NCBI GenBank assembly: GCA_025454915.1
Contig: JALONN010000010.1
Span: 12,339 to 76,338 of the forward strand
Direction: 5' to 3'
Source: Raineya sp.
Lineage (GTDB): Bacteria; Bacteroidota; Bacteroidia; Cytophagales; Thermonemataceae
Length of the DNA stretch: 64,000 nucleotides
A model generated the notes under the pieces. That model did not search any database and was not told the DNA's origin. It saw only the letters and a list, made by a program, of their open reading frames with translations. Positions 19,669 to 63,520 of the stretch are shown one piece after another (position 1 is the stretch's first letter; the number at the start of each line of letters is the position of its first letter). The translations under genes and the position numbers were made by a program.

Positions 19669-19675
19669 TATTAGT

Positions 19676-19722: not shown

Positions 19723-19740
19723 ATAAATTCAGATGAAATT

Positions 19741-20253
19741 ATGCTAGAAATAGAAGTAATTAAGGGAGATATTACAACAATGGAAGTAGATGCTATTGTT
19801 AATGCAGCCAATACATCACTTTTAGGGGGTGGAGGGGTTGATGGAGCTATTCATAGAAAAGGAGGAAAAAAAATCCTAGAAGAATGTGTAGCCATCCGTA
19901 ACAAACAAGGTGGTTGTGCAACTGGAGAAGCTGTTTTTACAACAGCAGGCGATTTATCTGCAAAATATGTAATTCATACAGTAGGACCTGTATGGCAAGA
20001 TGGTTCTAAAAATGAGCCAGCATTACTGAAAAGTTGTTATTTAAATGCTTTAAAAATAGCAGAAGAACTTAAAATAGAATCTATTGCATTCCCAAGCATA
20101 AGTACAGGTATTTACAAATATCCAAAACAAAAAGCAGCAGAAATAGCCATTGAAGTAGCTAAAAGTCATCAAACAAACACAATCAAAAAAATACAATTTG
20201 TCTGCTTTGATGATGAAAATTTTAAAATTTATGAGCAATTATTAAACGTATGA
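19741..20253 (+). CDS. macro-domain protein (O-acetyl-ADP-ribose deacetylase, YmdB-like)
   Basis: [44 protein letters not shown]. Confidence 0.85.
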
Positions 20254-47648: not shown

Positions 47649-47766
47649 ATGAAAAAGCTATTTTATTGGTTCATTTATATATTAATGGTATTTCCTTTGC
47701 TTCTTTGTTGGGCAAGTGAAAAACAAACCAAAAATATTTTATAACATAGTTTTAAAGAAAAGTTTT
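47649..47766 (+). pseudogene. frameshifted remnant of an ancestral signal-peptide N-terminus of the ankyrin-like paralog family
   Basis: ATG 47649 encodes MKKLFYWFIYILMVFPLLLCWASEKQTKNIL*. gggcaagtgaaaaacaaaccaaaaa (47709-) matches gggcaagtgaaaaacaagaccaaaa of the paralog at 50265-. The homologous VKNK(P/T)K frame continues into the next gene. Confidence 0.45.
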
Positions 47767-50091
47767 ATGAAAAAAATCTGCTTGTTGTTAATTTCTATGC
47801 TTATATGTATGTGTGCATATACACAAGATGCCTTATTGGATAGTGCTCAGTTGGCAAAATTTAGCGAAAATAGCTTTCGTAGCTATTCTGGTCTTAAATT
47901 AATTGATAATTGCTGTCCTGCTGGAGTGACTGGGCTATACATGAGTAGTGGAGATCAGGGAGAATTAAAATTTGAAAAAATACATCTATTCACAAAATTA
48001 CAAGTATTACATATTTCAGGATATTATAAATTGGATATTTCTATACCCAAGGAGATAGGGTTGCTGAAAAACTTACAAGTATTGAAAATAGAAAATAATA
48101 AATCTATTTCTTTACCAAAAGAAATAGAAGCACTCCAAAACTTAAGATTACTGGATTTATCTCACAACAAACTCACTTCTTTACCTAACGGAATAGAAAC
48201 GTTGGGAAATTTGGAAATATTAAATCTATCTAATAACAAACTCACATCTCTGCCTAAAGAAATAGGAAAACTAAAAAAACTGAAAGTATTAAAATTATCT
48301 AATAATATGCTCAATTCCTTACCAGAAGAAATCATGGAATTAGAAAATTTAGAGGTATTAGAGTTAGGAAGAAATCTTTTTATAAAAGTACCAGAAGGCA
48401 TATGGAAGTTAAAGAAAATTAGGGTGATAGATTTATCTGGAAACAATAATCTTGCTTTGACAGACAACTTTGGTAAGCTAAAAACCCTCCAAGAACTATA
48501 TTTCTATGCAATTTATGACGACTTCGCAAATACCCCTCGTCCCATAAAGATACCCAAATCAATAGGTGATTTAGATAATTTGAAAATATTGGGTATCTCC
48601 CACAATAACTTGACCATAGTTCCTAAAGAAATATGGTCATTGAAGAATTTAAAAAAATTATATCTAAATGATAATAAACTTACTTCAATACCCAAAGAAA
48701 TAGCAAATTTAAAAAATTTAGAGAATTTAGATATAAGTAATAATAAAATTAAATTTTTACCCAAAGAAATAGAAACCTTGCCAAAAATAAAAGTAATAGA
48801 AACTGAGGGTAATTTATTTAAAAAGAAATTTCTCGCACATGACGAATTACGTTCAGCTCTTTATGATGGTAGATACAAAGATGCTCTTAAATATATCTCG
48901 CAAGGGGCGGATATACGGAAAGCTCGTGATACAATGGAAAGCGTGAGTGTGAACAGAATAGGGAAAACAGTACCCAATTATGTTAGAGAAAATTCTGGTT
49001 CAAGTCCAAGAGTGGGAGCATTTATTGGCTTCCTTTTGCCTTTTGTGGCAGCAGCTGAAGGGCTTTCCCAAAAAAGTGGTAGTAATAATAGTCCTGTAAA
49101 TTGTAAAATTGTGGATATAGCTCTCAACGATGCCTTAGGAGATACCATCAAAAGCCCTGAAAGGCTAAAAGTTATGGAATATGCTCTGCAAAAAGGAGCA
49201 ACTCCTGATGACCTTCGTTTATATTTGGCTGTAGAAAATAGAGATGTAGAGGCAACACGCTTACTGATGCAATACAAAGCTGAAGCAGATAGTGATTGGT
49301 TTTGGAAATGGACATTACCCACTTGTCAATGCTTAGACTCCACAGATAAAAATAAATATAATCCTGAACGTTTCGCTTCTTTTAAACAAGTAGTAGGAGT
49401 AGTTTTAAAAAACAAGCCTAAGTTAAGTGATGTAACCTTAGAACGCTTTTACACAAGTCCAGTTCTAACAAAGATGTTATTGGAGTTTTATACCCCAGAA
49501 GAACTCCACACCATACATAACCCTCTTTATACAGCTTGTGGATATTTTGACTTGGAGTTATTTAAAGAATATGAAGCATTGGGTTTTAGTAAATTTGATA
49601 TTTATAAGAATGAAAAGTTTTATAAATATCTTGGAGGCAATAGCAGATGGGCAAAAATTTATGAATACATCTATCCAAAAGGTTTTGATGTGAATTTTAA
49701 AATCCCTCCTTATAACCAATTCGAGCGTGAAAAAACATTTTTTTGTCGTATTATAGAGTATTCTACCATAGATGTAGATGTAATGAAAACACTTTTAACC
49801 ATGAAACCTGATTTCTGTGTACCTTGTAATCCTTTGGGGGTGCTACAAAAGAGAATAGCATGGTGTAAAAGACTTCTGGATTCAGAAAAAAATAGTAAAT
49901 ATTATAATGAAGACCTCAATCGTTATAAGAAATCACTTGCCATTGAGCCTCTTTTAGAAGAGTATTATAAGACTTTGCCAAAGGAGCAAAAGAAAATCAT
50001 TCTTAAAAGCCTAAAAAAATATCAGACCTCTGAATATGACCTTTCAGTTTTCCTAAAAAAGACTTATATTAAGAAACTCAAAAAACTATAA
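47767..50091 (+). CDS. secreted LRR + ankyrin-like fusion protein (paralog 1)
   Basis: Signal peptide MKKICLLLISMLICMCAYTQ, then about 12 LRRs (LRLLDLSHNKLTSLPNGIETLGNLEILNLSNNKLTSLPKEIGKLKKLKVL..). From HDELRSALYDGRYKDALKYISQGADIRK to the end it is homologous to 50096-51538. Ankyrin-like: YLAVENRDVEATRLLMQYKAEAD. Confidence 0.8.
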   Translation: MKKICLLLISMLICMCAYTQDALLDSAQLAKFSENSFRSYSGLKLIDNCCPAGVTGLYMSSGDQGELKFEKIHLFTKLQVLHISGYYKLDISIPKEIGLLKNLQVLKIENNKSISLPKEIEALQNLRLLDLSHNKLTSLPNGIETLGNLEILNLSNNKLTSLPKEIGKLKKLKVLKLSNNMLNSLPEEIMELENLEVLELGRNLFIKVPEGIWKLKKIRVIDLSGNNNLALTDNFGKLKTLQELYFYAIYDDFANTPRPIKIPKSIGDLDNLKILGISHNNLTIVPKEIWSLKNLKKLYLNDNKLTSIPKEIANLKNLENLDISNNKIKFLPKEIETLPKIKVIETEGNLFKKKFLAHDELRSALYDGRYKDALKYISQGADIRKARDTMESVSVNRIGKTVPNYVRENSGSSPRVGAFIGFLLPFVAAAEGLSQKSGSNNSPVNCKIVDIALNDALGDTIKSPERLKVMEYALQKGATPDDLRLYLAVENRDVEATRLLMQYKAEADSDWFWKWTLPTCQCLDSTDKNKYNPERFASFKQVVGVVLKNKPKLSDVTLERFYTSPVLTKMLLEFYTPEELHTIHNPLYTACGYFDLELFKEYEALGFSKFDIYKNEKFYKYLGGNSRWAKIYEYIYPKGFDVNFKIPPYNQFEREKTFFCRIIEYSTIDVDVMKTLLTMKPDFCVPCNPLGVLQKRIAWCKRLLDSEKNSKYYNEDLNRYKKSLAIEPLLEEYYKTLPKEQKKIILKSLKKYQTSEYDLSVFLKKTYIKKLKKL

Positions 50092-50165
50092 CTGTATGCT
50101 TCACATTCATCGAACTACTGAAAATAAAACGCAACAAGAACAAACCAATTTCTATGCTCAAAGCA
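48836..50165 (+). repeat. segmental tandem duplication, unit 1 (C-terminal 1.25 kb of paralog 1, a 4-nt spacer, and a copy of the giant-gene leader)
   Basis: Near-identical blocks at both ends when compared with 50303-51609, for example ctttatgatggtagatacaaagatgctcttaaatatatctcgcaagggg and tcagttttcctaaaaaagacttatat.aagaaactcaaaaaactataactgtatgcttcacattcat. Confidence 0.85.
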
Positions 50166-51538
50166 GGGAAAAACATGTTTTTTCTCTTGTTGTTCTTTCG
50201 ATAAGTATGAAAATAGCATTATGTGTTATTTTGCTATTCCCTTTTCTTGTATTAGGGCAAGTGAAAAACAAGACCAAAACACAAACAAGGCCCAAAGAAC
50301 CACCTCATGAGGAGCTACGTTCTGCCCTTTATGATGGTAGATACAAAGATGCTCTTAAATATATCTCGCAAGGGGCAGATATACGTAAAACAGATACCTT
50401 AGAAACACTAAGAGTTTCCAGAGAAAAGCAGGGAACATTGGATTATCCCGAAACTTCAAGTCCAAGAGCAGGAGCATTTATTGGCATCATTTTGCCTTTT
50501 GTGGCTGCTGCCGAAGGGCTTGCCCAAAAAAGTAGCAGTAGCAGTTCTTTTTCTGTTACCTGCAAAATTGTAGATATAGCTCTCAATGATGCCTTAGAAG
50601 ATACCATCAAAAGCCCTGAAAGATTAAAAATTATAGAGTACTGTTTGCAAAAAGGAGCAGACCCTGATGGGGCATACAAGTATATACCCTTATATTTGAG
50701 TATTACACAGAGAGATATAGAAATAACCAAACTACTTCTTCAATACAAAGCAAAACCTGATGTTTCTGCCCTTTGGACATATATTCTTAGAGGTTGTCCA
50801 TGTGTAGATACATCAGCTAATAGCCAAGATACTAAAAAAGTAGAATCTTTCAAAAATGTGGTGGGTTTACTTTTAGAAAAGAAACCCAAATTGGAGATGA
50901 GTACACTTGGGAAATTTTATAAAAAACCAGAATGGACAAAATGGCTCTTGAAGTATTATACCTTAGAAGAGTTAAATAAAATGAATAATCCCATTTACAC
51001 AGCTTGTTATTATGCTGATTTGAAATTATTTAAAGAATATGAGACTATGGGTTTTGGTAAATCTGATATTTATAAAAATGATAAACTTTATGATACTATT
51101 GCACTATATAATGCTAAGTTTTATGAATACATCTATCCAAAAGGTTTTGATGTGAATTATGAACATAAATTTGGTGATAAACTAACCTTTTTTTGTCGTG
51201 TTATTGAGTATTCTACAGATGTAGATTTTATAAGAATACTTTTAACTATGAAACCTGATTTTTGTGTACCTTGTAATCCTCTGGGATTGTTACAAGAAAA
51301 AATTATTCGATATAAAAATAATTTAGAAAAATCTAAAGATGACAAAGATTATAATAAATATCTTACTCGTTACAACAAATTACTTACTATTGAGCCTCTG
51401 TTAGAAGATTACTACAAGACTTTACCCAAAGAGCAAAAAAAAATCATTCTTGAAAGTCTAAAAAAATATAAAACCTATAGATATGAACTTTCAGTTTTCC
51501 TAAAAAAGACTTATATCAAGAAACTCAAAAAACTATAA
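50096..51538 (+). CDS. ankyrin-like protein (paralog 2). Annotated from the duplicated leader ATG; the alternative start at 50207 gives a classical signal peptide
   Basis: MLHIHRTTENKTQQEQTNFYAQ (copy of the giant-gene N-terminus), then SREKHVFSLVVLSIS, then MKIALCVILLFPFLVLGQVKNKTKTQ.., then EELRSALYDGRYKDALKYISQGADIRK. All of it is in one open frame. Confidence 0.75.
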   Translation: MLHIHRTTENKTQQEQTNFYAQSREKHVFSLVVLSISMKIALCVILLFPFLVLGQVKNKTKTQTRPKEPPHEELRSALYDGRYKDALKYISQGADIRKTDTLETLRVSREKQGTLDYPETSSPRAGAFIGIILPFVAAAEGLAQKSSSSSSFSVTCKIVDIALNDALEDTIKSPERLKIIEYCLQKGADPDGAYKYIPLYLSITQRDIEITKLLLQYKAKPDVSALWTYILRGCPCVDTSANSQDTKKVESFKNVVGLLLEKKPKLEMSTLGKFYKKPEWTKWLLKYYTLEELNKMNNPIYTACYYADLKLFKEYETMGFGKSDIYKNDKLYDTIALYNAKFYEYIYPKGFDVNYEHKFGDKLTFFCRVIEYSTDVDFIRILLTMKPDFCVPCNPLGLLQEKIIRYKNNLEKSKDDKDYNKYLTRYNKLLTIEPLLEDYYKTLPKEQKKIILESLKKYKTYRYELSVFLKKTYIKKLKKL

Positions 51539-51609
51539 CTGTATGCTTCACATTCATAGAACTACTGAAAATAAAACACAAGAACAAACCAATTTCTATG
51601 CCCAAAACA
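50303..51609 (+). repeat. segmental tandem duplication, unit 2
   Basis: See unit 1. The ends are nearly identical and the middle is more diverged (SPRVGAFIGFLLPFVAAAEGLSQKSGSNNSPVNCKIVDIALNDALGD versus SPRAGAFIGIILPFVAAAEGLAQKSSSSSSFSVTCKIVDIALNDALED). Confidence 0.85.
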
Positions 51610-54600
51610 TAGAAACTAAAAATACTGCTTTCCAAAATCAAAATAACTTTAAACCCTTAGGAGGTGACCCTCCTGATAAAGAAGCTATTGATGAAATGAT
51701 GAAAATCTTAAAAGAAGGGAAATTGACTAAAACAAAAGCAGAAGAAATTTTTGGAAAGTATGCAGAATTAAAAGAAGATGCTAAAGCAGAAAAAGATGAA
51801 TCTGGAAATCCAAATCCTTTATATATTAAAGGCGTAGATTTTGAGAAAGGCATATTTCCTGTTCCTCAACAAGAGCATTATAAGAATGAAAAAAAAGAAG
51901 ATGACAAAGAAGCATACGAAAAAGCTATGATTCACCATAAGAATCGTCTCAAATTATACAGAATATATGTTGGTTACGATTATTATGGTAAAGTTCTTCC
52001 TATTCTGCGTAGGATACTGAGGAAACAGATTTGGTTCAATGCTGTGAAATCTTGGGAAGCAATAGAGGCTTACCATATTCTAGATGATATGCAACCTGAA
52101 TACAGAGAGATTTTTGCTAACGAAGAGCCAATTCTTAACGATCGTATTTTTGGTGAACTTCCAATAGAATTTAGAACACAACAAAAATCTGCTCTACAAA
52201 AAGGAATTGCTTCCAAAGACCATGAGAGGCTTACAAAAGACCTTGAAAAAGCTATAAAGACAAACAATATTCTTCTTATTAAACTTTTGATAGCAATTGC
52301 TATAGAAGCTGGCTTAGAGAAAACCCTACCTGAAACCATCCAACAAAATGAAATTGTAAAGGGAGAAATAGCAAAGCTAGGTCGAAAAACAACAGGAGAG
52401 GCAGCCCAGGATATTCAACAAAAGAGAAAAGGCAGACATGCTATTTATAGACGCAACCTTGATAAAATTTATCAAAAAAACGCATTTAAAGATCCACGTG
52501 AAGCTCAAGAAGCTCCTGATCAGGTAGACAAAGATGCTGTGATAAGAGGGAAAGAAGCAGGAGGTATTGGTAAAATGACTTTGGGTTTTTTAGGAGAAAG
52601 ATTATCATTTTATGGAGATACGTTAAGTGGCTTGAATGCTGATGATGATCCGTCAATAGTATTAAAAAAAGCTTTAAAACTATCTGTTCAAATAGGTAAA
52701 GATTTCTTAGGTAAAACTAATACGCTTGAGAGTTTTGATTTAGAAAGATTTCAGGGAAGCATGGGAGGCTCACTGATGGGGCTGGAAGTAAGTAAAACGA
52801 ATAATCATCAAAAAGATACCCTTTTTAAAGATGATGAGAAAAAGGTGAGTGAAGAAGATAAACAGGACATGAAAAACTTAGAAAATGGAAATTTATCAGC
52901 ATGGATTGATTTTAGAAATGGAGAAATAAAAGTAATAGCAAATGCAATACCTTTCAAAAGTTTGAACTATTTGGCAGGAGATATGGCTTTTAAAGCTACT
53001 GAAGGAGCTTTTAATCAGATTTTCATGAAAATGAAATGGAACCCAAAAGTGAAAAAAGAAGAAGAAGTCGTTGCAGATATTGACTTGGTTGCAGGAGGTG
53101 TAGTGCTTGAGGGGATGCGAATGATTACAGATGAAGAAACCTATGGAATAGGTAAGATATTAGCCAAGGGATTACAAATTTCCATGAAACAAACCATTGG
53201 AATAGGGAAAGATCTTAAAGGATGGAAGAAACCAATTAACTTATTATTCAATACAATAGGAGCCATGAATAATATGATATTCCTTCTTATTAATTCTGCA
53301 ATGGTTACTTATCAGAGACTTGCCAATGTAGAAAACAAGCAAGATGAGTTTTCAATGGCTCAAGCCGATTTTACGAAAGCCTTGGGGGCTTCTCAGAATA
53401 ATTTCTTTGATTTAAAATATATGAAAGTAGCAGATATTGTGCTACAAAACTTTTATAGCACTTCTATGGGTAGAATAGGTGAAATAGGTTTGGGAGGTAA
53501 TAATATTAAGTTACAATCTGATGAAGCATCCTTTTCTCAGGATGAAAAAGCTACACTTTTTAAAAAGAAAAAAGAATTAAAGAAACTTCAAGGAAAGTTG
53601 GAAGAGGTATTAGATAGAAGGGCTAATATGAAGAGAAAAAAACAAGTAGAAAGATTTACAAAAAAACCCAAGTTAACAAAAAAACAGGAAGATATAGAGA
53701 AGCTAGAAGTTGAAATAGCCCAACTAGAGAAAAAACATAATCTCAAATTAGGATTTGAGACTAGCCATTTGGAACTTAAAGAGGCAGATATGATACAAGA
53801 AATGATGGCTAAAATGCTTAAAGAGAGCTTCAAAGAGAGTGGCATGGAAATGGAAGGTGTACAGGGCTTAGATGGTTTTGAGTTGCCTCAAGGTTTAAAA
53901 TTGGGAACATTTGTAAAGGATAAAAATAATACAGAAAAGAATACACAAATATCCCCAGAACAAATTAAAGACTTGAGTATTGATGTTCCCAAGATTGTAT
54001 TTTTAAATCCTGTTACAGCCTCAAAACTTACTTATACAGGTAAAAAAGACCTCATAGATAAACAAACCAATCAGCCTATCAAAGAAAAAGGGAAAACGAA
54101 GAAGGAAGACACCATGCAAGTGATAGGTACTGATGTTGTATTCACAAAACTTGAATTGGGGTTGAAAATAGATTTTGCAGATTATGATAAATCAAAACCT
54201 CCGAAAGAAGAGGATAGTCTTATTGAAAATATGGAAATCAAGGGGTTGAAAGCAGAAACAGCCAGTTTTGGAACTTTTCAGTTCAAACTGCCAAACCCAT
54301 TTGATCCTATTAAAAAGGTGAGAAAGGAGGGAACAAAGGATGAAACAAAGGATGAAACAAATTTTTATGATGTATTAGACTTCAAAGATCAAGTTACTTT
54401 TCATGATTTTGATTTTAGTTTTCTTGAAAAAGCTGAGGACCCAATTACTTTAAAAATCGGAAAAATTGAACAAACCAAAAAAACACCTACTAATGTGAAC
54501 GGTATGCAATACAATTATAGGTATAAAAAGACCGAAAAAAATGAGAAAGGTGAAGATGTAGAAACAAATATTAAAGTAAATGGGAGCTTTAGTATGTTAA

Positions 54601-57587
54601 ATAAAATTGATCCTAAAGAAAAAAAACTCAATCCTGAAGCAAAAGGTGAGCCTAGCCTATCAGGGTTAACTTTTACAAGAGAAAACAAAAATGACGGAAA
54701 AAAAGACATTGATAAAATATTACTGGGTAAGTTATTTTTTCAGAATAACAAATTAGAAAACTTCTATTTTAAACAAGGAGATCTAGAGGTAAAAGGGAAT
54801 AATGCAATAATGGAGCATATAGATTTAGAAGGTTTAGTATTTGAAATGCAAACTGAATACGACTCTAAAGATAAGAAAAATGTAATCAGTAGCAGTGAAT
54901 ATTTACGATCTCTTCAAAACCTTTTTATAAATAGGATTCATTTTGGAAGTAACTTTATAATTACGAAAGCAGGTAAAGAGTATAAATTAGGTAGTGGAAG
55001 TATAGACAAGCTGAATGCAAAAAACTTGGAGTTGGATTTTCAGGGTAAAGATAAATTTGAAATGTTTAAAAAGGGAGAGATATCTTTTGCTCATTTTAAT
55101 TTGAGTAATCTTGCTTTGGATAGTTTGAGTAAATTGAATTATTTTAATCTCAAGGATTTTAGTATAGAAAGGGTTAAAGATGCAAAAGAGGATGTTATCA
55201 AATTTAAGGGTGAGCAAAGTATCGGATATCACAAAAACAATAATACATCTTCTTTGAATGTAGGGGCTTATAGCAAATTGTCAGGAATATATGATAAAAA
55301 GGAAATTATGACCAAAGATGAAAACGAGAAATGGATAGGTACTGGAACGTATACATACTCTTTCAAGACAGATTTAGATGATTTCGGGAGCAATATCGCA
55401 CTATCAGATGATAAAAAAGATGTCAAAACTGAAATAGGTGCCCCTAAAATAAGTATCAAGACAGATTTTGAAACATACGCAGACATAGATTTTGGAGATT
55501 ATATATCAATGAAAAGCCTGAATTACGAATCCAAAGATGGGATGTATATTAGAGGGTCTAATTATGATAATGGTTTGATAAGATTAGAAAACCCATCAGC
55601 AAAATTGAAATTAGTAAAAGATAAAAAAACAGATAAATTCACAAACATAGAAATAGAACAATTCCATCTCAAGAAAATAGTAGCCTCCAAACTGGACTTT
55701 GGACAATATCATAAAGTTACAGAAGAAGATAAAAAAAGTGACCTTGAGAACAAAACAGAGAAATATAAAAATTATTCCATAGGAAGTATTGATAAACGAG
55801 CGGGGTATGAAGATGCAACATTTGCATTAAAAAATGGAAAAACGGCTAGTCTTACAGATGTGTATTTATCAGGGAATTTTAGGTTGTCAGATGGAGCTCT
55901 CGCTCTAAAAGGTGGAGCTAAAGAAGTGAATTTAGAAGAATTAAAAGCAGTTCTTTCACAAAGTGCTGTATTTTTAAATCCTTATTTGAAAGCAGATAAT
56001 CTCACTTTTAGTAGAGAATATAATGGAGATATGGATGCAAAAGTAAATAATTTTAGGACTGGCTTGAGGGATAATGAAATAACAATGCAACCTAATAATA
56101 TGGGAATGATTAAATTGGAACAATCAGCAAATAATAAAGATACTCCTGTTTTACAATCACATACACTTACTTATAATTATAATAAAAAAGAAGATAAAAC
56201 AGAGGTCATCATAAAAGACCCAAAATTGGGAGCGATTGTACTTGAAGGGCATTTTCGTGGATACAATGGAACTTCAGGTATAGCTCTCCAAAAAATGATT
56301 ATGCAAGGAGAAATGAAGGGAGATTTCAAACTTACAGATACTCCAACAGAAACGATTTTAGATGGAAAAGATTTTATATTCCAAATTCCAGAAGCTTATT
56401 TTGTAGCCAATAGCATGTCAGACCTTTTCAGCCTTACCAAACCAGAAGAAAAGAAAGAGCAAAATAATAGCAATACTAATTTCACTACTGAAGAAGATAA
56501 TAGCCGATTCAAACAACTTGAAAGGCGAGAATATGCAAAGCTTGATACTAATCCTGATTTGGTAAAAAATTATGTTAAGAATCAAGCTCGTGAGAGGCTC
56601 CATAATGAAAAAAAACAAGAAGAGTTTAATAAATTATCACAAGATTTTGCATTTATGAATCTATTTACAGATAGTAGTATTGTCTTTAATGCTTTTGGAG
56701 AGGAATTTATTTTACAACCAGAACCTATTTATGCAACAAGCCTCAGAGCACGCCGAGCGGATGCCCACATAGATGTATTTTCGTTTTTAAAATCTATTGC
56801 AGATTTAACAGCTAATAGACTAATAGAACTTTACAGCGTTTCATTTCAAATTCCTGCAAATAATGAAGCAAAAGGATTTATACAAATACTGGAATATATA
56901 AGCAAGTGGGTTGCTAAAAATGGTTCTTCGGCTATTTTACAAAGTTTTGAAAACTTTGTGGAAGAAAGGTGTGGTAATATTTTTAAAGAAGTAGGAGATA
57001 AAAAATACATTCAGATGTCTGAGTTTGCTGCATTGTGTAGTATGTTAGGGGATATGCAAGAAGATTTGATAGAAAGAATTATGGAAGTACCCATCATTGA
57101 TTTTGGAAAAGGGATATATGATTTTTTTTCTGAACCAAGTTCAGAACCTGTAGACCCTGAACAATTAATACCTTCTTTCGTTGAAATGGTTGTTTCAATG
57201 ATGCAACCACGATTTACATTACATGCTAAAGGTTCAGGATTCAAAGACTACAATAAAGGTATGCTAAAACCATATATGGAAAGTGATTTCACAAAGCAAG
57301 CTTTTTCAAGTGAAGGATTTCTAACATTTCAGTTAGCAAATAATAGAAATCCTCTAATTAGTCTTCAAAATTGGAACTTTGAAGGTTTTAGTTTGCCAAT
57401 TTCTAAAGGAAAAGGTAAATTATCTACCAAATCAATGGGTATATCACAATTAACATTTTTTAAACAGAATGGACTAAAGAAATCAGGATTAGTAAACTTA
57501 GATGCAAAAAATGTGTACTTGAAAGGGCTATACATGATAATAAATAAGACCAAAGATACTGATAAAGAAAAGAAAACTGGAAAATAA
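51543..57587 (+). CDS. giant (2014-aa) K/E/D/N-rich orphan protein with no signal peptide; candidate CIS cargo/effector or accessory component
   Basis: A single uninterrupted 6-kb ORF in AT-rich DNA. The polar N-terminus is MLHIHRTTENKTQEQTNFYAQNIETKN. I see only two Cys (ERCGNIF, AALCSML). No HExxH, P-loop or other catalytic motif recognised. Confidence 0.8.
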   Translation: MLHIHRTTENKTQEQTNFYAQNIETKNTAFQNQNNFKPLGGDPPDKEAIDEMMKILKEGKLTKTKAEEIFGKYAELKEDAKAEKDESGNPNPLYIKGVDFEKGIFPVPQQEHYKNEKKEDDKEAYEKAMIHHKNRLKLYRIYVGYDYYGKVLPILRRILRKQIWFNAVKSWEAIEAYHILDDMQPEYREIFANEEPILNDRIFGELPIEFRTQQKSALQKGIASKDHERLTKDLEKAIKTNNILLIKLLIAIAIEAGLEKTLPETIQQNEIVKGEIAKLGRKTTGEAAQDIQQKRKGRHAIYRRNLDKIYQKNAFKDPREAQEAPDQVDKDAVIRGKEAGGIGKMTLGFLGERLSFYGDTLSGLNADDDPSIVLKKALKLSVQIGKDFLGKTNTLESFDLERFQGSMGGSLMGLEVSKTNNHQKDTLFKDDEKKVSEEDKQDMKNLENGNLSAWIDFRNGEIKVIANAIPFKSLNYLAGDMAFKATEGAFNQIFMKMKWNPKVKKEEEVVADIDLVAGGVVLEGMRMITDEETYGIGKILAKGLQISMKQTIGIGKDLKGWKKPINLLFNTIGAMNNMIFLLINSAMVTYQRLANVENKQDEFSMAQADFTKALGASQNNFFDLKYMKVADIVLQNFYSTSMGRIGEIGLGGNNIKLQSDEASFSQDEKATLFKKKKELKKLQGKLEEVLDRRANMKRKKQVERFTKKPKLTKKQEDIEKLEVEIAQLEKKHNLKLGFETSHLELKEADMIQEMMAKMLKESFKESGMEMEGVQGLDGFELPQGLKLGTFVKDKNNTEKNTQISPEQIKDLSIDVPKIVFLNPVTASKLTYTGKKDLIDKQTNQPIKEKGKTKKEDTMQVIGTDVVFTKLELGLKIDFADYDKSKPPKEEDSLIENMEIKGLKAETASFGTFQFKLPNPFDPIKKVRKEGTKDETKDETNFYDVLDFKDQVTFHDFDFSFLEKAEDPITLKIGKIEQTKKTPTNVNGMQYNYRYKKTEKNEKGEDVETNIKVNGSFSMLNKIDPKEKKLNPEAKGEPSLSGLTFTRENKNDGKKDIDKILLGKLFFQNNKLENFYFKQGDLEVKGNNAIMEHIDLEGLVFEMQTEYDSKDKKNVISSSEYLRSLQNLFINRIHFGSNFIITKAGKEYKLGSGSIDKLNAKNLELDFQGKDKFEMFKKGEISFAHFNLSNLALDSLSKLNYFNLKDFSIERVKDAKEDVIKFKGEQSIGYHKNNNTSSLNVGAYSKLSGIYDKKEIMTKDENEKWIGTGTYTYSFKTDLDDFGSNIALSDDKKDVKTEIGAPKISIKTDFETYADIDFGDYISMKSLNYESKDGMYIRGSNYDNGLIRLENPSAKLKLVKDKKTDKFTNIEIEQFHLKKIVASKLDFGQYHKVTEEDKKSDLENKTEKYKNYSIGSIDKRAGYEDATFALKNGKTASLTDVYLSGNFRLSDGALALKGGAKEVNLEELKAVLSQSAVFLNPYLKADNLTFSREYNGDMDAKVNNFRTGLRDNEITMQPNNMGMIKLEQSANNKDTPVLQSHTLTYNYNKKEDKTEVIIKDPKLGAIVLEGHFRGYNGTSGIALQKMIMQGEMKGDFKLTDTPTETILDGKDFIFQIPEAYFVANSMSDLFSLTKPEEKKEQNNSNTNFTTEEDNSRFKQLERREYAKLDTNPDLVKNYVKNQARERLHNEKKQEEFNKLSQDFAFMNLFTDSSIVFNAFGEEFILQPEPIYATSLRARRADAHIDVFSFLKSIADLTANRLIELYSVSFQIPANNEAKGFIQILEYISKWVAKNGSSAILQSFENFVEERCGNIFKEVGDKKYIQMSEFAALCSMLGDMQEDLIERIMEVPIIDFGKGIYDFFSEPSSEPVDPEQLIPSFVEMVVSMMQPRFTLHAKGSGFKDYNKGMLKPYMESDFTKQAFSSEGFLTFQLANNRNPLISLQNWNFEGFSLPISKGKGKLSTKSMGISQLTFFKQNGLKKSGLVNLDAKNVYLKGLYMIINKTKDTDKEKKTGK

Positions 57588-57600
57588 ACAAATAGTCTAT

Positions 57601-57634
57601 ATTAGTGAGGTTAGTTTAAACTAACCTCACTAAT
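57601..57634. terminator. perfect 34-nt palindrome; bidirectional terminator between the giant gene and the AAA+ gene
   Basis: attagtgaggttagttt|aaactaacctcactaat. Confidence 0.8.
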
Positions 57635-57650
57635 ATTATATTCCTTATTT

Positions 57651-59003
57651 CTACATAATAATATCCTTCCACATAGGAAGGTTTAATTCTTTACACATAG
57701 CTGTAATATCATGGTATCCTTTTCCTTGAACAATATAGAAGTTTCTTAAAGTCCTAAAAAATTTCTCCCTGTCAAAAACATAAGCATTCTCTGAGCTATC
57801 TTCTAAAGCTTGAACTTTACAAAAACGGGCAAAACTCTTGATCCAAGCTCCATTCATATCTTTGAGTTTATCTGCCACATATTCAATAGGTACATTGTTG
57901 AAAAAAAACTCTTCAAAAGCCTTCGCCCATATTTCATAACGAATAGTGGGGTAAGGCTGACTAAACTCAAATCTCAACTGAAAACGTCTCTTGAAAGCCT
58001 CATCCAAATTGTCTTTTTTGTTGGTACAAAGAAATAAAATTCCATCAAAATCCTCCATTCTTTGAAGTAGATAGGCTATTTCCTGATTTCCATATCTATC
58101 ATTGGCAGATTTGTTGTCTGTTCTTTTACCCAGCAAAGCATCTCCTTCATCAAAAAAGAGAATCCAGTCTTTATTTTGAGCCAAATCGAAGACATATTTA
58201 AGGTTTTTCTCAGTTTCACCCACATATTTGGAAACAATCTGAGAGAGGTCAATTCTGTACACATCTCTGCCTACTTCTTTTCCCAAAATACCTACACTGA
58301 CAGTTTTACCAGTACCAGATTCACCCCAAAACAAAGCTTTGAAACCCTTTGAACCTTTGTACTGAGGATTATTATTGAGTTCAGGATAATGTTTCATCCA
58401 AGCTTTTACATCCATCAAACAATCTCTTACAGAAGGATTTAAGACCAAATCATCCCAAGTTTCGTCTGTTTGGTATAAACTGGCAGGAAATGAGGAACTG
58501 TAAGTATAATAATACTTTCTATTCATCACCACTCTAAAATAAAATTCAGGAGAAATTTCTAAAGCACAATCCTCCATTGCAGGATTTTTAGAAAAAGGCT
58601 TTAGAATGTTGTTTTTAAACAAAGGACTCTCTTTTTGTAGAAAGTTATTAATAATCTGAATTCTTTCTAAATGTTGCTTTCCTGCAAGTAAAAACAAAGC
58701 TGTACGAACAGTAGGAGAAAAAGTGCCATCTTCTTGATTAATGCCTCCATGTAAAGAAGGTTCAGGACTACTTTTTTCTATACTTTTGAATCTATCAAAA
58801 ATAGAGGGATTAAAAGCATAAGCCAAAGCTAAAAGAGCTATTATAATTTCTTCTGGTTCTGAAATACCTTCTTTTTGCCATTCTTCAAGGTCTTCAATAT
58901 AAATAGATTGTGGAATTTCTACATAATTAATAATCTCCTCTAATTTATCAACTTTACTTTTTAAAAGTTCCTCAAGCCACAACAACTGTTTTATTATATT
59001 CAT
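57651..59003 (-). CDS. AAA+ ATPase of the Afp15/Pvc15 (contractile-injection-system-associated) type
   Basis: Single AAA module at the C-terminus: FWGESGTGKT (Walker A), SKYVGETEKNLKYVFDLA, ILFFDEGDALLGKRTDNKSANDRYGNQEIAYLLQRMEDFDGILFLCTN (Walker B and sensor region), FKRRF. The unique N-terminal domain is about 220 aa. Confidence 0.75.
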   Translation of the reverse strand: MNIIKQLLWLEELLKSKVDKLEEIINYVEIPQSIYIEDLEEWQKEGISEPEEIIIALLALAYAFNPSIFDRFKSIEKSSPEPSLHGGINQEDGTFSPTVRTALFLLAGKQHLERIQIINNFLQKESPLFKNNILKPFSKNPAMEDCALEISPEFYFRVVMNRKYYYTYSSSFPASLYQTDETWDDLVLNPSVRDCLMDVKAWMKHYPELNNNPQYKGSKGFKALFWGESGTGKTVSVGILGKEVGRDVYRIDLSQIVSKYVGETEKNLKYVFDLAQNKDWILFFDEGDALLGKRTDNKSANDRYGNQEIAYLLQRMEDFDGILFLCTNKKDNLDEAFKRRFQLRFEFSQPYPTIRYEIWAKAFEEFFFNNVPIEYVADKLKDMNGAWIKSFARFCKVQALEDSSENAYVFDREKFFRTLRNFYIVQGKGYHDITAMCKELNLPMWKDIIM

Positions 59004-59083: not shown

Positions 59084-60892
59084 ATGAATAGTGACCCTAC
59101 TAAAATTTATGATGATAAAATGTATGCATTTCCAGAGCAGGATAGTTCTAAACAACAACAGGAACGATTTGGCAACAGATGGGATGATAGGTTTCAAAGT
59201 AGATGGGGTGTTCAGTTTACAGAAGCCCAAGAAACAACTGTAAATTCTATTCCCTCTTATGGAATTACCAATAAAAAAACAACTGTAATCATAGGAGCTA
59301 AAAAAAATAAAAAAGAAACCCTTGAAGCAGACACTGAAATAAAGATTATATCCAATCAGGGTGAAAGCTATGAAGTAGAAGCTACCATTGGGGAAAAGAA
59401 AATTATTGGTTTAGTATTAAAAAGTGATATAGATACTTTTGCTAATAAAATGGCAGATTTGCCTGAAGAGCAAAAGAAAAAAATAGATATGGATACGACT
59501 ACTATGATGCCACTTATAGAATATCCTAGCTATGAGTTTAGTAATCATAATTATTTTATCCAAATTAATGGAACACCTGATGTTTTTAGAAGTCTTTTCA
59601 AAAATGTTATTGGTAGCTATTTAATCAGATATAATTTAAATCAAGCTAATAGAACTATTAAAATAGCAATTCCCTTTACTGGTCTTCCTACGGATTTTAT
59701 CAAAGATGAAAGTATCAAAAAGAAATACAACAACAATACTTTTGCTTTCAGATTTACAAGATTAGAAGATAGAAATGGAAGAGAAATGTTTTTGATAGAA
59801 GAATTAGGGCAAGTAAAAGCACCTGCACCAATGGATATTCAGAATAAAGAGTTAAAATTTCATAAATATGGCTTTACTTTTTACGAACCATCTGCTGGAG
59901 AGGTACAAAATGCTAATGATTTAAAAACTGAAATAGAGAGTAATGGAGTAACAGAGAGAGCTAAAGAGCTTTATCCGAAGGCTTTCTTAACACTTTCTGC
60001 TCAAGAAAAAGAGGTTATTATCAGGGCTGTTGAAAAAATGCCCACAAATACTTTAGAAACCATTAAAAATGTAGTTTTCAATAAGAAAAATTATCAAATT
60101 GAAGATGGAGCAGTAAAACCTATGACAGCTGCATTTTATAACAGCCAAAATCATACTGTAACAGTTATAAAAGATATTATCGAACAAAGAGCTAATACTT
60201 TTGGTGATAATGAAACTGAAGGATTTTCTAATAGTGCAGAGTTTACCATTATACATGAATTGGGGCATGCTGTCGACTTTGCCCCTTATAAAGAAAAACA
60301 CACAGTTTTAGATGCAAAAAGAAGTGTATATGATGCAGAAATAAAACTGTATAATCAGGCTATTGATACTCAAAAGCAAGCTTATGAAACATTTTTAAAT
60401 GAACGAACAGCTCTTATAAAAACATATAAAAATCAAATTACTTTTACCAATATACAAGAAAATGAAAAAGGGCAGATTACGAATTTTCGTTATTCTGGTA
60501 CACCACCTCACTTTGAGGCATTTCAGAGTGGCTTGAAAAAAATAGAAAAAAAATATGATGCTGTTAAAGCTACTAGTGCAAGTGCAAAAACACGATTTGA
60601 ATCTGTTAAAACAGATTATGAAAATACGAGAACAGCAGCTTCCCAAAGTAGAAATTTATCAGGTTATGGACAAGTATATAATACAACTACTCAAAAATGG
60701 GATGTAGTAGATGATAAAACAGCTTTTGATGAAGCTGTAGAAAAAGACAGCCCAAGAACTACAATCTATGCAAATACCAATGACAAAGAATCTTTTGCAG
60801 AGGCATTTGCTTTGTATGTAACAGAACCCGAAACTTTGAAAACCCTTAGCCCCAATGTGTATGCTTATTTTCTTCAGAAGTTTCCTCGTTAG
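59084..60892 (+). CDS. zincin metalloprotease-like protein of the anthrax lethal factor / PPEP (M34, ATLF-like) type with a large insertion; no signal peptide
   Basis: AEFTIIHELGHAVDF (HExxH at 60254-60268) and KESFAEAFALYVTEPETLKTLSPNVYAYFLQKF (60788-), which resembles the LF/PPEP 'E-F-F-A-E-A-F' third-ligand helix. I count about 173 residues between the two motifs. Confidence 0.6.
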   Translation: MNSDPTKIYDDKMYAFPEQDSSKQQQERFGNRWDDRFQSRWGVQFTEAQETTVNSIPSYGITNKKTTVIIGAKKNKKETLEADTEIKIISNQGESYEVEATIGEKKIIGLVLKSDIDTFANKMADLPEEQKKKIDMDTTTMMPLIEYPSYEFSNHNYFIQINGTPDVFRSLFKNVIGSYLIRYNLNQANRTIKIAIPFTGLPTDFIKDESIKKKYNNNTFAFRFTRLEDRNGREMFLIEELGQVKAPAPMDIQNKELKFHKYGFTFYEPSAGEVQNANDLKTEIESNGVTERAKELYPKAFLTLSAQEKEVIIRAVEKMPTNTLETIKNVVFNKKNYQIEDGAVKPMTAAFYNSQNHTVTVIKDIIEQRANTFGDNETEGFSNSAEFTIIHELGHAVDFAPYKEKHTVLDAKRSVYDAEIKLYNQAIDTQKQAYETFLNERTALIKTYKNQITFTNIQENEKGQITNFRYSGTPPHFEAFQSGLKKIEKKYDAVKATSASAKTRFESVKTDYENTRTAASQSRNLSGYGQVYNTTTQKWDVVDDKTAFDEAVEKDSPRTTIYANTNDKESFAEAFALYVTEPETLKTLSPNVYAYFLQKFPR

Positions 60893-62219
60893 TATATTGT
60901 TTTTATATATCGGGATAACTCATGCCCAACTCATAGCTGTTGCCAAAAAAAAAGATAAATATGGTGTAATAGACTCCACAGGGAAATGGATTGTAGAACC
61001 TCGTAACAAAGCACTCAAAAACTGTTTAGAAGGAGAATATATGATGCGATTAGTTTATATGCCTCTAGCCTCTGTGATAGAAACACATTCTGATGAAATT
61101 CCAGAAGAAAAATTTAGTGAAACATTACTTTTCGATATTTTAAGATTTAAAAATAAAAACGTAAAATATATCAAATTAGAAGATGGTACATTTTTTAGTA
61201 ATATCAGAAATGGATATTTTTTAAGAGATATAGAGGATAGTCTTTATAAAAAAATTTATATAACCACTTTTAATATTCAAGATAAGCCTTTGCATCAAAA
61301 AGTACCTCAAAAAAAAACTTTTAATTATTATCTCCTTCCAAAAGAAGAACTTATTACAGTTGGTCAAACTAAAAATTGGGGACTTGGATTTGGAGCAAAT
61401 ATGTCATGGTTTTTTGATATTCCCTTCTACAATGATAACAATGAGTTTTTGTGGGAGAGAAGGGATTATTTTTCTCATAGACCTTATTTGTATGGAAAAG
61501 TAGATGACTCTATCCAAAATCATTTAAACTCAATCAGGGACACTTTTCGTATCAAAAAATGGGGGGCAATAGATACGAATCATAAAGTTATTATCTCGCC
61601 TCAATATTCATATCCTTTTGAGTTTTCTCAAGGAAAAGCTTTGATAGGAGTGAAAAAAGGTAAAAACTATCAATTCTTTTTTATCAACAAACAAAATAAA
61701 CGCTTACATAAGAAAAACTTCGCTTTTGCTCGAAGCTTTCAGGAGAATTTAGCTTTGTGTAAAGATGAAAAATCATGGTTCTTTGTAGATACGAGTATGC
61801 AAAAAGTGTTTTCTATGCCTCCAGAAACGATGTATACAGACTCATTTTTTGAAGGAATGGCTGTGATAGCTTTTGAACGTCAGGGAAGAGTTTTGTATGG
61901 TTATATAGATAAAACAGGAAAAGTCGTCATTAATCCTCAATATAAACAAGTAGGGCATTTTTCAGAAGGTTTGGCTGTGGCAATGGATAATTCAGGCAAA
62001 TATGGTTATATCAATAAACAAGGTATTTGGGTAATATCACCTCAATATACTTTAACATCATTTTTAGATAAAAATTCTGAAACACTTAATTTTCATCAAG
62101 GTAGAGTTGTTTTTTATGATGATAAAACTCAAAAATATGGTTTTTTAGACAAGACTGGAAATGTAGTTCTTTCTGCTCAATTTGATGAACTTCAACCTTT
62201 TTATAGTATTAAGAAATAG
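60855..62219 (+). CDS. secreted WG-repeat (KWG) protein
   Basis: Signal peptide. Repeats: KYGVIDSTGKWIVEPRNK, KWGAIDTNHKVIISPQY, YGYIDKTGKVVINPQYKQVGHFSEGLAVA, KYGYINKQGIWVISPQY, KYGFLDKTGNVVLSAQF. Confidence 0.8.
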   Translation: MCMLIFFRSFLVSILFLYIGITHAQLIAVAKKKDKYGVIDSTGKWIVEPRNKALKNCLEGEYMMRLVYMPLASVIETHSDEIPEEKFSETLLFDILRFKNKNVKYIKLEDGTFFSNIRNGYFLRDIEDSLYKKIYITTFNIQDKPLHQKVPQKKTFNYYLLPKEELITVGQTKNWGLGFGANMSWFFDIPFYNDNNEFLWERRDYFSHRPYLYGKVDDSIQNHLNSIRDTFRIKKWGAIDTNHKVIISPQYSYPFEFSQGKALIGVKKGKNYQFFFINKQNKRLHKKNFAFARSFQENLALCKDEKSWFFVDTSMQKVFSMPPETMYTDSFFEGMAVIAFERQGRVLYGYIDKTGKVVINPQYKQVGHFSEGLAVAMDNSGKYGYINKQGIWVISPQYTLTSFLDKNSETLNFHQGRVVFYDDKTQKYGFLDKTGNVVLSAQFDELQPFYSIKK

Positions 62220-62475: not shown

Positions 62476-63519
62476 TTAAAATTCATCTACTTTCCAATAA
62501 ATAATCTTGGTATCTACAAATTGCCCTGAAAGTAAAAACACTCTTATAGATGCATCTGTATTGGTTAGTTTTTTCGTATCAGATGTTAAATTTGATGGCA
62601 ATGTTTTTTGAAATACATTTGTCAAATCATCGGTAGGGTTTTCAATAGTTACTTCTCCACTAGATGGAGCTAACCTAATAATCATATTGATTTTTTGCCC
62701 GATGAATGTATTGCTAAACTTATAAGTTCTAGTACCTATTGCTGTTAAGAATGGATTAGGGCTTACTAAGTTTTCATGCCTTCCCAATAAATCAATTGTA
62801 GAGTTTGCTGTTGGGCTGTAATTGACATTATTAGATTTTACCTGATTATAAGGAGCAATAAAGTTTTCAGAAGAAAGTAAATTTGCTGTAGTTTGGGCGT
62901 TTGTTGATTTAATTCCAGTTGTATCAAATGAAATCATCAAGGAATTATCAAAATAAAACCCTATCGTGTTTTTCCTTAAAAGAATATCAATCTTTTTATT
63001 CGTTACAGTATTGCCTTCTTGCTCAAAATTCTGATCTATACTTATTTTAACATAAGGGTATTGACCATCATAACCATTTTCAATGGTGGCTTTATTTGTC
63101 CTGATAGATGCCGATAAATACTTTTTAATCTCAAACTCTTTTTTGGAACTTGTTTCTCCAAAAAGAATACTGGCTAGCGATTGCTGTAATTGTCCCTCAG
63201 TAGTAGATTCAGAACCATTTTTACTTACCTTTCTTGATACTTCCGCATTTTGGGTACTTTCTAGGTACACCCTGCCTCTTTTCGTATATCCTGCTGCCAC
63301 ATTATCGGCATTCAATGTTATGATTGAATCCGTTTTATTAACATGAGTATTTAGAACTGGTGGATTAAGATCAGTGCTTTTATCATTGCCAAGTAAAAAT
63401 ACTCCATTTATTATTTGAACAAGAGCGGTTCCAACTCTTGTGGCTGTATTTTCTCCATCTTCGATTGCATCTCTGATTTCTTCCAACAGTGGAAGAATAT
63501 CATTATATTCTGGCTTCAT
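62476..63519 (-). CDS. putative tail-fibre / distal baseplate protein of a phage-tail-like apparatus
   Basis: 347 aa, S/T/N-rich and beta-looking. Its start codon is 1 nt downstream of the upstream stop, so the two genes appear translationally coupled. No family motif recognised; the call rests on position and composition. Confidence 0.35.
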   Translation of the reverse strand: MKPEYNDILPLLEEIRDAIEDGENTATRVGTALVQIINGVFLLGNDKSTDLNPPVLNTHVNKTDSIITLNADNVAAGYTKRGRVYLESTQNAEVSRKVSKNGSESTTEGQLQQSLASILFGETSSKKEFEIKKYLSASIRTNKATIENGYDGQYPYVKISIDQNFEQEGNTVTNKKIDILLRKNTIGFYFDNSLMISFDTTGIKSTNAQTTANLLSSENFIAPYNQVKSNNVNYSPTANSTIDLLGRHENLVSPNPFLTAIGTRTYKFSNTFIGQKINMIIRLAPSSGEVTIENPTDDLTNVFQKTLPSNLTSDTKKLTNTDASIRVFLLSGQFVDTKIIYWKVDEF

Positions 63520-63520
63520 A

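Follow-up and report, generated by a model that had tools for sequence, protein, structure and literature searches.

Why is a protein of 2,014 residues, in which no domain can be recognised, encoded beside an ATPase of the class that loads contractile injection systems (CIS), in a stretch of DNA that contains no CIS locus? The question is raised by 64,000 nucleotides of the genome of Raineya sp. (assembly GCA_025454915.1, contig JALONN010000010.1, positions 12,339–76,338), here called the window, in which the giant protein is encoded on the plus strand at positions 51543–57587. The giant belongs to a very rare and fast-evolving family of proteins of about 2,000 residues, which is restricted to the order Cytophagales and is present in no domain library. 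An AAA+ ATPase gene adjoins the giant gene in eight of the nine loci that have been found. The giant may be a payload of an extracellular contractile injection system (eCIS) with a private loader ATPase and a body directed at lipids or membranes; we assign this reading a probability of about 0.45.

A rare protein family linked to an Afp15-type ATPase

The open reading frame (ORF) of the giant begins with ATG and is uninterrupted over its 6 kilobases, as had been stated in an earlier inspection of the sequence, hereafter the original prediction. The protein is rich in charged and polar residues (K 12.7%, E 8.6%, D 6.8%, N 6.8%) and contains two cysteines, C1810 and C1832, which agrees with the composition that had been estimated by eye. 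The reported absence of an export signal and of a metalloprotease-type motif was borne out as well: motif scans found no HExxH, and the window giant has neither a Sec signal nor a strong hydrophobic segment. The giant is most likely made in the cytoplasm. The claim that it has no P-loop needs one qualification, because a lone Walker-A-like string, GKDFLGKT, is present at residue 385; since the string is not conserved in the homologues, it is treated as a chance occurrence. None of the models in Pfam, NCBIfam, PHROGs, and PADLOC matches the giant, as expected for a protein described as having no recognisable domain, and six members of the family have no Pfam match at E ≤ 1, including models of the AsmA clan, chorein_N, CIS_TMP, and toxins. 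Searches of Protein Data Bank (PDB) sequences with phmmer and with profiles returned coiled-coil noise only. Nothing was found by tblastn in 50,697 phage records or in plasmids, the Afp18-bearing plasmids of Serratia included.

The description of the giant as an orphan was too strong. Two routes led to homologues, and all nine loci in the resulting set, designated by L numbers, are from Cytophagales. The first route followed the neighbourhoods of homologues of the adjacent ATPase and yielded L005, L006, L020, and L021. Locus L005 is located on another contig of the same Raineya metagenome-assembled genome (MAG) and encodes a giant of 2,091 residues, L006 originates from another sample and encodes one of 2,000 residues, and L020 and L021 have a giant ORF of 2,010 residues. 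The ATPases of these loci are 80% (L005), 70% (L006), and 78% (L020 and L021) identical to that of the window. The second route was an exhaustive search of 1.84 billion representative proteins with residues 815–2014 of the giant as the query, which gave 10 matches, three of them near full length. In an uncultured Microscilla genome (L009), the gene of the giant P0122 has two ankyrin-like genes on its upstream side and the gene for a 761-residue ATPase on its downstream side, and downstream of the giant P0123 (L010) a homologous ATPase begins. A scan of 185,579 species genomes identified three giant loci, L009 and the pair L013 and L014 of a single Cytophagales MAG, and a scan of metagenomes added only duplicates of the latter two. 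A word-indexed protein search, run with the giant and also with a three-sequence alignment, retrieved the query itself only; it missed the giants of L005 and L006, which were members of the query alignment and whose contigs are in the Joint Genome Institute (JGI) source of that search. For the giant, with its low complexity and fast evolution, the verdict of “no homologues” from this word-indexed search was misleading.

Seven full-length members could be aligned and are colinear from end to end, with pairwise identities of 19–31%, apart from two closer pairs at 59% and 46%. The window giant is about 25–27% identical to the ORFs of L005, L006, L020, and L021, among which the L020 and L021 giants cluster with those of L005 and L006 at 60–76%. 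A motif that is invariant in the family, IxxEAGxE, occupies residues 252–259.

In the survey of homologues and of their linkage to Afp15-like ATPases, which the original prediction had called for, the ATPase gene is adjacent in the window, L005, L006, L009, L010, L014, L020, and L021. In L014 it lies directly upstream of the giant, and L013, the second copy in the genome that has L014, contains no ATPase gene within 10 kilobases of the giant. A gene for a Sec-exported ankyrin-repeat protein is positioned upstream of the giant in five of the nine loci. The order of the three genes in L005, L006, and L020 is exported ankyrin-like protein of about 400 residues, giant, and ATPase; L021 starts within the giant gene. 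In the window the ATPase gene is inverted and convergent with the giant; it is downstream on the same strand in L005, L006, L009, L010, L020, and L021.

The 450-residue ATPase of the window (57651–59003, minus strand) contains an AAA domain (PF00004, E = 1.9e-24) with an intact Walker A motif (GESGTGKT, residue 227) and an intact Walker B motif (ILFFDE). The AAA domain is 45% identical to that of Afp15 from Serratia entomophila, with a score of 167 bits as against 92 bits for p97, and the Serratia Afp15 gene sits between genes annotated as CIS tape measure and DUF4255. Homologues of the ATPase with 43–52% identity adjoin eCIS_core (DUF4157), Pvc16_N, CIS_TMP, and CIS_tube genes, and the homologues encoded by the genes that immediately follow the giant in L005, L006, and L020 are 70–80% identical to it. 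The neighbour is an ATPase of the Afp15/Pvc15/Alg15 type, as had been proposed. The assembly of particles proceeds without Pvc15 or the Cytophagales protein Alg15; however, the loading of payloads into the tube lumen requires them and takes place via a disordered, system-specific sequence at the N-terminus of the payload (PMC11495950; bioRxiv 10.64898/2026.05.27.728243). The cargo probably enters the tube unfolded, and AlgoCIS loads a cargo of 1,228 residues (PMC11495950; bioRxiv 10.64898/2026.05.27.728243). The giant and ATPase genes of the window converge on a perfect palindrome, as the original prediction had it, although the palindrome is 38 nucleotides long (57599–57636) rather than 34. 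Its folding energy is -23.7 kcal/mol (z = -7.35), and a T-rich tail comes after it; it is probably a bidirectional intrinsic terminator between the two genes.

The ATPase also has a likeness to the IetAS defence system, and the locus could be an anti-phage or conflict system that has nothing to do with injection, in which an IetA-like AAA ATPase would act together with the giant as effector and with an exported protein as sensor or partner. The ATPase of the window belongs to the classical AAA proteins and is matched by the IetA models of PADLOC (E = 8.7e-32) and by the NCBIfam model IteA, and a 66%-identical ATPase, P0006, is part of an island that also includes McrBC, nSTAND3, and Mrr genes. 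Fast and mosaic evolution, as seen in the giant, would also suit such a role. However, the IteA score of 97 bits is far below the curated family cut-off of 510, no IetS-type protease partner is present, no PADLOC model matches the giant, L005 and L020 lie outside defence islands, and the ATPase is closer to those inside bona fide eCIS operons. A conflict system is therefore quite unlikely.

The divergence of the giant is best seen by comparing L005 and L020, which are orthologous loci amid housekeeping genes (S41 protease, ribosomal protein L28, and aminotransferase). The flanking genes of the two loci are 94.6% and 98.7% identical, the ATPase 86.7%, the ankyrin protein 74.2%, and the giant 62.3%. 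Between the window and L005, the ATPase retains 80% identity, the ankyrin protein 31%, and the giant 27%. Within the giants of L005 (3700–9975) and L020 (1423–7455), residues of approximately 500–900 are 85–95% identical, as compared with 20–74% outside this core and 20–45% in the C-terminal 500 residues. One C-terminus type is common to L006 and L020, which points to recombination of the C-terminal region. These sequence comparisons indicate that the giant module evolves fast and recombines, as an island within a backbone that is itself conserved, and that a conserved core is combined in it with a hypervariable C-terminal domain.

Predicted rod and C-terminal domain of the giant

AlphaFold models of the giant were calculated from alignments of four to ten homologues only. 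The mean pLDDT (predicted local distance difference test) score is 45.5 for the N-terminal half and 66.3 for the C-terminal half, which has a predicted template modelling score of 0.53 and in which residues of about 1200–1630 reach pLDDT values of 70–93. The predicted secondary structure matches the architecture that had been read from the sequence, namely a helical N-terminus, a coiled coil, a beta region, and a distinct C-terminus.

Residues 1–45 (51543–51677) are polar and predicted to be disordered (pLDDT < 50), and constitute a candidate loading sequence; 18 of the 45 are S, T, N, or Q and nine are charged, within an N-terminal model that is poor as a whole. The N-termini of the other giants are polar too. 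A helical domain with the IxxEAGxE motif (residues 46–320; 51678–52502) is followed by a Gly-rich, low-confidence linker (residues 321–440; 52503–52862). The counterpart of the linker contains one to two strongly hydrophobic, transmembrane-like segments in the giants of L005 (3700–9975; residues 357–396) and L006 (3977–9979; residues 352–370), whereas the matching position in the window giant is only a Gly-rich, weakly hydrophobic stretch. Residues 450–960 (52890–54422) are the most conserved core of the family and provide the best BLAST segments to all homologues. The core comprises long beta hairpins at 450–560, a hydrophobic helix at 563–617, a coiled coil at 666–731 (53538–53735), and the first strands of a beta-rich rod, which extends over residues 734–1630 (53742–56432) and is predicted to consist of long antiparallel strands of up to 27 residues. 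No internal repeats were detected in the beta region by self-BLAST or hhalign. The giants of L010 (69–6605) and L014 (9680–16255) are longer by a segment of roughly 190 residues within the rod, at alignment columns 1780–1990, which resembles the adjacent one (P0123 residues 1260–1439 and approximately 1456–1640, 32% identity via P0124); therefore, the rod can grow by unit duplication. The C-terminal alpha/beta domain (residues 1650–2014; 56490–57584) contains strongly amphipathic helices (1649–1887), then a terminal beta unit with the conserved strand motif ..GKLSTK..KG[FL]x[LMI], and finally a tail rich in Lys. Between orthologous loci, this domain is the hypervariable part of the giant.

The combination of AlphaFold and Foldseek that had been suggested as a check returned bridge-like lipid-transfer proteins, the eukaryotic relatives of AsmA and TamB, at the top of the matches to the beta rod. 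The first match in the PDB is the LPD-3 (BLTP1) complex, with E = 9.7e-6 and a probability of 0.92, followed by teneurin, the YD shell of which matches at low probability, and by ApoB100, outer-membrane barrels, OrfX/P47, and vitellogenin. Among viral models, the first match is a mimivirus chorein-N (VPS13-like) protein, with E = 9.1e-7 and a probability of 0.99. The fold search with the N-terminal half is meaningless at the pLDDT of that model. The giant resembles repeating beta-groove (RBG) proteins (BLTP1/LPD-3, VPS13, and ATG2, and bacterial TamB and YhdP) in its predicted rod of about 900 residues built of very long antiparallel strands and in the top matches from two independent libraries. 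The C-termini of VPS13 and ATG2 also have amphipathic helices after the rod, as in the giant. Unlike the RBG and AsmA proteins, the giant has no chorein_N or AsmA-clan sequence match; unlike the bacterial AsmA-like members, the window giant has no N-terminal membrane anchor; and its helical and coiled-coil N-terminal part of 730 residues, its extremely narrow distribution, and its fast evolution set it apart from the RBG proteins. A simple count of strand parity on the rod gave hydrophobic fractions of 0.55 and 0.33 for the two faces. An RBG-like rod is the best available reading of the predicted fold, at roughly even odds.

Such a rod could serve the producer cell itself. The main rival to the payload reading is an envelope bridge independent of any CIS, in which the giant, analogous to RBG and AsmA/TamB proteins, would bind or move lipids in the envelope of the producer, a co-opted Afp15-type unfoldase would insert, export, or recycle it, and the ankyrin protein would provide a docking site in the periplasm. 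The top structural matches to lipid-transfer bridges and other lipid-binding beta sheets (LPD-3, chorein-N, ApoB100, OrfX/P47, and vitellogenin) speak for this explanation, as do the transmembrane-like hairpins of the L005 and L006 giants and the conserved exported partner. It also fits the stable housekeeping synteny, without CIS genes, of several modules: those of L005 and L020 are by the genes for S41 protease and L28, and that of L014 is near parA/parB. Set against these points, the window giant has no N-terminal signal, anchor, or evident route across the inner membrane, no AsmA-clan model matches any of the six members that were scanned, and the protein is very charged. The strand-face count, 0.55 against 0.33, leaves a hydrophobic groove unconfirmed. 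Extreme rarity (three loci in 185,579 species genomes and 10 matches in 1.84 billion proteins) and rapid divergence (62% identity where the neighbours retain 95–99%) would be odd for a housekeeping lipid transporter. An envelope bridge is a possible but doubtful explanation. The AsmA/TamB-like candidate of the original prediction thus gained the structural matches, and lost on the sequence match and the anchor.

Injection-system genes and the payload reading

The first 44 kilobases of the window contain ordinary chromosomal genes and no CIS structural gene. No transfer RNA gene was found in the window, which rules out an island flanked by such genes. At its end, library scans identified the edge of a phage-like baseplate fragment (62476–64000, minus strand), consisting of a gene for a 347-residue protein in the gpI position (62476–63519), the first baseplate-like gene of the window, and the start of Baseplate_J. 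Past the window end, Baseplate_J (550 residues), a gp25-like protein (112 residues), and gpV (192 residues) are encoded on the minus strand, and beyond gpV there are an amidase gene, small ORFs, and genes for a single-stranded DNA-binding protein (SSB) and Sipho_Gp157; the fragment runs on in L001:20934–24541 and L003:1–8015. A sheath or tube gene was not detected within reach of this four-gene baseplate fragment, and it looks like a phage-derived remnant. It is not a conserved companion of the giant, because the five other loci with enough flank contain no CIS structural genes within 10 kilobases. The window itself does not contain a CIS locus.

The giant could nevertheless be a virion- or tail-associated protein of the phage-like region that starts at the window end, since the gpV, gp25, gpJ, and gpI-like baseplate genes, together with those for amidase, SSB, and Sipho_Gp157, lie 5–15 kilobases downstream, and the ATPase matches phrog_3757 (E = 1.1e-52). 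However, the other eight loci have no phage genes nearby, the phage records and PHROGs contain nothing similar to the giant, and the ATPase has only two weak phage matches. We regard a prophage origin as extremely unlikely.

A canonical eCIS operon, L015, is located on another contig of the same Raineya MAG. It encodes a gp19-type tube, CIS_tube, a VgrG-like spike, PAAR, gp25, a 1,256-residue protein, and a Pvc16 cap, and has its own ATPase, a paralogue that is 44% identical to the ATPase of the window. The near-consecutive protein accessions of the eCIS operon and the giant modules (MCU04389xx to MCU04402xx) support their origin from a single MAG. The MAG contains one eCIS operon and two giant modules. 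The operon is distinct from the baseplate fragment at the window end.

The position of the giant relative to the ATPase suggests yet another possibility, that it is an oversized tape measure or an assembly scaffold of a CIS. The giant is directly upstream of a same-strand ATPase gene in L005, L006, L009, L020, and L021, as Afp14 and Afp15 are in Serratia, and it has the Gly-rich and hydrophobic segments and the coiled coil that occur in many tape measure proteins. Unlike CIS tape measures (PF19268), however, the giant is predicted to form about 900 residues of long beta strands rather than helices, and six members of the family have no CIS_TMP match. In profile searches, neither the CIS_TMP protein of L008 nor any of the genes in the Raineya eCIS locus proved similar to the giant, the modules are not beside tube, sheath, or baseplate genes, and two giant copies accompany a single eCIS operon in the genome. 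A structural role, which had been envisaged as a particle-associated scaffold, is very unlikely. Homology of the giant, as a tape measure or a split gene, with the neighbours of other ATPases (L007, L008, and L015) was also sought and not found. The tape measure, defence-system, and prophage readings are all less likely than a payload or an envelope bridge.

We infer loading, injection, an activity on lipids or membranes, and a role of the ankyrin protein as follows. The giant would be a payload of the eCIS of the organism, the structural operon of which is elsewhere in the genome. The polar N-terminal segment of about 45 residues, which is predicted to be disordered, would serve as its loading sequence, which the adjacent ATPase paralogue would recognise before unfolding the giant and threading it into the tube. 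After injection, the protein would refold into a long amphipathic beta-sheet rod similar to those of bridge-like lipid-transfer proteins, and the rod would act on membranes or lipids of the target together with the hypervariable, amphipathic alpha/beta C-terminal domain and its polybasic tail. The exported ankyrin protein would co-evolve with the giant as its partner and perhaps confer immunity or offer a docking site in the periplasm. A payload is the most economical reading because of the ATPase linkage, the role of this ATPase class, the presence of an eCIS in the genome, the signal-less N-terminus with its predicted disorder, and the arms-race type of evolution; membranes or lipids are proposed as the target because of the predicted fold and the amphipathic, polybasic C-terminus.

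The giant shares several properties with known eCIS payloads, such as Afp18 of Serratia, Pnf and Pdp1 of the Photorhabdus virulence cassettes (PVC), and Cgo1 and Cgo2 of AlgoCIS. It has no signal, its N-terminus is polar and predicted to be disordered, and it is encoded beside an ATPase of the cargo-loading class in an organism that has an eCIS. AlgoCIS originates from the same bacterial order as the giant. The giant is very large, as is Afp18, to which it is comparable in size (more than 2,180 residues of Afp18 are encoded by the part of the gene within L019). Unlike the known payloads, the giant is encoded away from the structural operon in a module with its own extra copy of the ATPase, has neither DUF4157 or a known toxin domain nor sequence similarity to Afp18, and is accompanied by a conserved Sec-exported ankyrin partner. 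A comparison with polymorphic toxins (Rhs, CDI, and MAF) is also instructive. The giant is similar to them in its conserved N-terminal and central part with a C-terminus that is hypervariable between near-identical loci, in its fast-evolving exported neighbour with repeats, which occurs in tandem copies, and in its second-rank, low-probability Foldseek match to the teneurin YD shell. By contrast, the C-termini of the giants stay homologous across the family and are not unrelated toxin cassettes, the candidate immunity gene, encoding the ankyrin protein, is upstream and does not track the giant C-terminus, the downstream gene encodes an ATPase, and there is no Rhs/YD, PAAR, or known toxin domain.

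Several observations weigh against the giant being a payload. Genes for known eCIS payloads normally end the structural operon; however, no CIS structural gene is present within 10 kilobases of the giant in L005, L006, L009, L013, or L014, the five other loci with enough flank for this check, and the co-occurrence of giant and eCIS was observed in the Raineya MAG. The Pfam scans detected neither DUF4157 nor a recognisable toxin domain in the giant, which is colinear over the whole family instead of carrying swapped, unrelated toxin modules. No likeness can be demonstrated among the N-terminal leaders of the giants, which cannot be aligned across the family. The transmembrane-like hairpins at residues of about 355–395 in the giants of L005 and L006 would be compatible with a protein that resides in a membrane as well. 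To our knowledge, a Sec-exported partner is not a feature of eCIS cargoes, and in the small sample of a three-locus comparison, variation in the ankyrin protein shows no obvious correspondence with that in the C-terminus of the giant. The fold evidence comes from a model of medium confidence (mean pLDDT 66, 10 sequences), and its matches have template modelling (TM) scores of about 0.1; low TM-scores are common with long curved rods.

The cargo proposed in the original prediction is therefore supported by the Afp15-type linkage in eight of nine loci and by the eCIS of the MAG, and not by linkage to structural genes. The support for the cargo and bridge candidates is in each case genuine but indirect. 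Both may be true, in which case the giant would be a cargo with an RBG-like rod as its body. A cargo with an Afp15-type loader is of a known kind, and the novelty lies in a module of three genes that is detached, in additional copies of the ATPase, in how large the protein is, and in its predicted fold. In its most specific form, the proposal is that of a “rogue lipid bridge”: a private Alg15-type ATPase would unfold the RBG-type rod, a CIS would deliver it, and the refolded protein would kill or reprogramme the target by bridging or stripping its membranes, an action from which the ankyrin protein would shield the envelope of the producer. As a whole this is unlikely. If correct, an RBG-like effector would be without precedent, and so would cargo-specific loader ATPases whose genes lie apart from the injection-system operon. 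Within a limited search, no literature was found that links RBG-like proteins to injected effectors or CIS.

Neighbouring genes, probable other clients, and the significance of possible loader modules

The giant gene starts 4 nucleotides past the stop codon of a 480-codon ORF (50096–51538, plus strand), which encodes the exported ankyrin-like protein that is the conserved upstream partner of the giant. The real start of this ORF is probably M38 (50207), because the orthologues in L005, L006, and L020 open with the signal peptide, and their alignment to the window copy begins at its residue 38; the signal peptide of the window copy reads MKIALCVILLFPFLVLGQ. The preceding 791-codon ORF (47716–50091, plus strand; probable start M18 at 47767, N-terminus MKKICLLLISMLICMCAYTQ) encodes a protein with a Sec signal, leucine-rich repeats (LRR) identified by Pfam matches, and a C-terminal ankyrin-like domain of 400 residues. 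Residues 375–779 of this protein are 61% identical to the 480-codon ORF, and the paralogy of the two genes, their orientation, and their spacing from the giant are as had been described. The ankyrin signal is weak in the window copies (E = 0.0015) and significant in the L005 orthologue (Ank_4, E = 9.5e-11). The L009 giant is also preceded by two copies of ankyrin-like homologues.

The paralogues are the product of a tandem duplication of about 1.45 kilobases of the ankyrin gene in the region 48838–51615, in which the direct repeats D1 and D8 are spaced 1444–1447 nucleotides apart. The duplication left a scar at 50096–50171 (plus strand), a copy of the first 72 nucleotides of the giant gene: codons 1–25 of the 480-codon ORF, as annotated, reproduce the first 24 codons of the giant (24–25 residues at 88% identity). 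A shared signal was considered as the reason for this 24-residue N-terminal identity and rejected in favour of a scar, because the DNA repeat crosses the stop codon and the 4-nucleotide spacer, and because the signal peptide located downstream is where the orthologues begin. Another remnant of the signal-peptide region of the ankyrin gene is present at 47710–47734, upstream of the LRR gene.

On its other side, the ATPase gene of the window forms a divergent pair with the gene for a 602-residue protein (59084–60892, plus strand), which has weak matches to ATLF and DUF4344 and, according to a motif scan, a zincin motif, HELGH, at residue 391. The leader at its N-terminus, MNSDPTKIYDDKMYAFPEQ, is polar and without a signal, and the first 34 residues share 56% identity with the start of a 535-residue protein from another metagenome (L007:7342–8949) to which the rest of the sequence is unrelated. 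The gene for the latter adjoins that of an ATPase 66% identical to the ATPase of the window, near an exported LRR protein. The 602-residue protein is probably a second client or cargo of the window ATPase, and the similarity of the leaders suggests that they may be a tag for recognition by the ATPase. The next gene (60897–62219, plus strand) encodes a WG-repeat protein (WG_beta_rep, E = 3.8e-35) with a signal-like N-terminus indicative of Sec export.

The pairing of a WG-repeat protein with the ATPase also occurs on the plasmid pPP2 of Persicobacter psychrovividus (L018, 184608–215642), which carries three tandem ATPase modules. Each of them encodes an exported 425-residue protein and a Peptidase_C39_2 protein of about 700 residues, with the Afp15-type ATPase on the opposite strand. 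One of the plasmid ATPases is apparently split into ORFs of 332 and 101 residues, and the modules are followed by repeated WG-repeat and LRR genes and an IS21 insertion element. The recurring theme is an ATPase, a signal-less protein with a polar leader, and a Sec-exported repeat protein, and the enzyme-like proteins in these sets are unrelated to each other. Such recurrent pairings are expected if each copy of the ATPase serves particular clients via their N-termini.

Elsewhere in the window, an Imm49-family protein beside a Macro-domain protein (18805–20253), a SUKH-1 (SMI1/KNR4) protein (4667–5341), and a 583-residue LRR protein (28924–30675) are encoded, which suggests that the genome is rich in genes of the conflict and immunity type.

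Most of what has been learnt about the contents of eCIS particles and the choice of their cargo comes from three or four model systems. If the giant modules are cargo-plus-loader units, payload genes would be findable throughout genomes via paralogues of the loader ATPase, and not only beside structural operons. One particle type could then serve several payloads, each specified by its ATPase, and there would be payloads of 2,000 residues that resemble lipid bridges, a way of acting that would be new among injected effectors. If the modules are independent of CIS, the recruitment of an injection-system unfoldase for a giant membrane-bridge protein would constitute a new kind of envelope machine. 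Either way, the giant family of Cytophagales is a clean target for structure determination and for the engineering of loading sequences.

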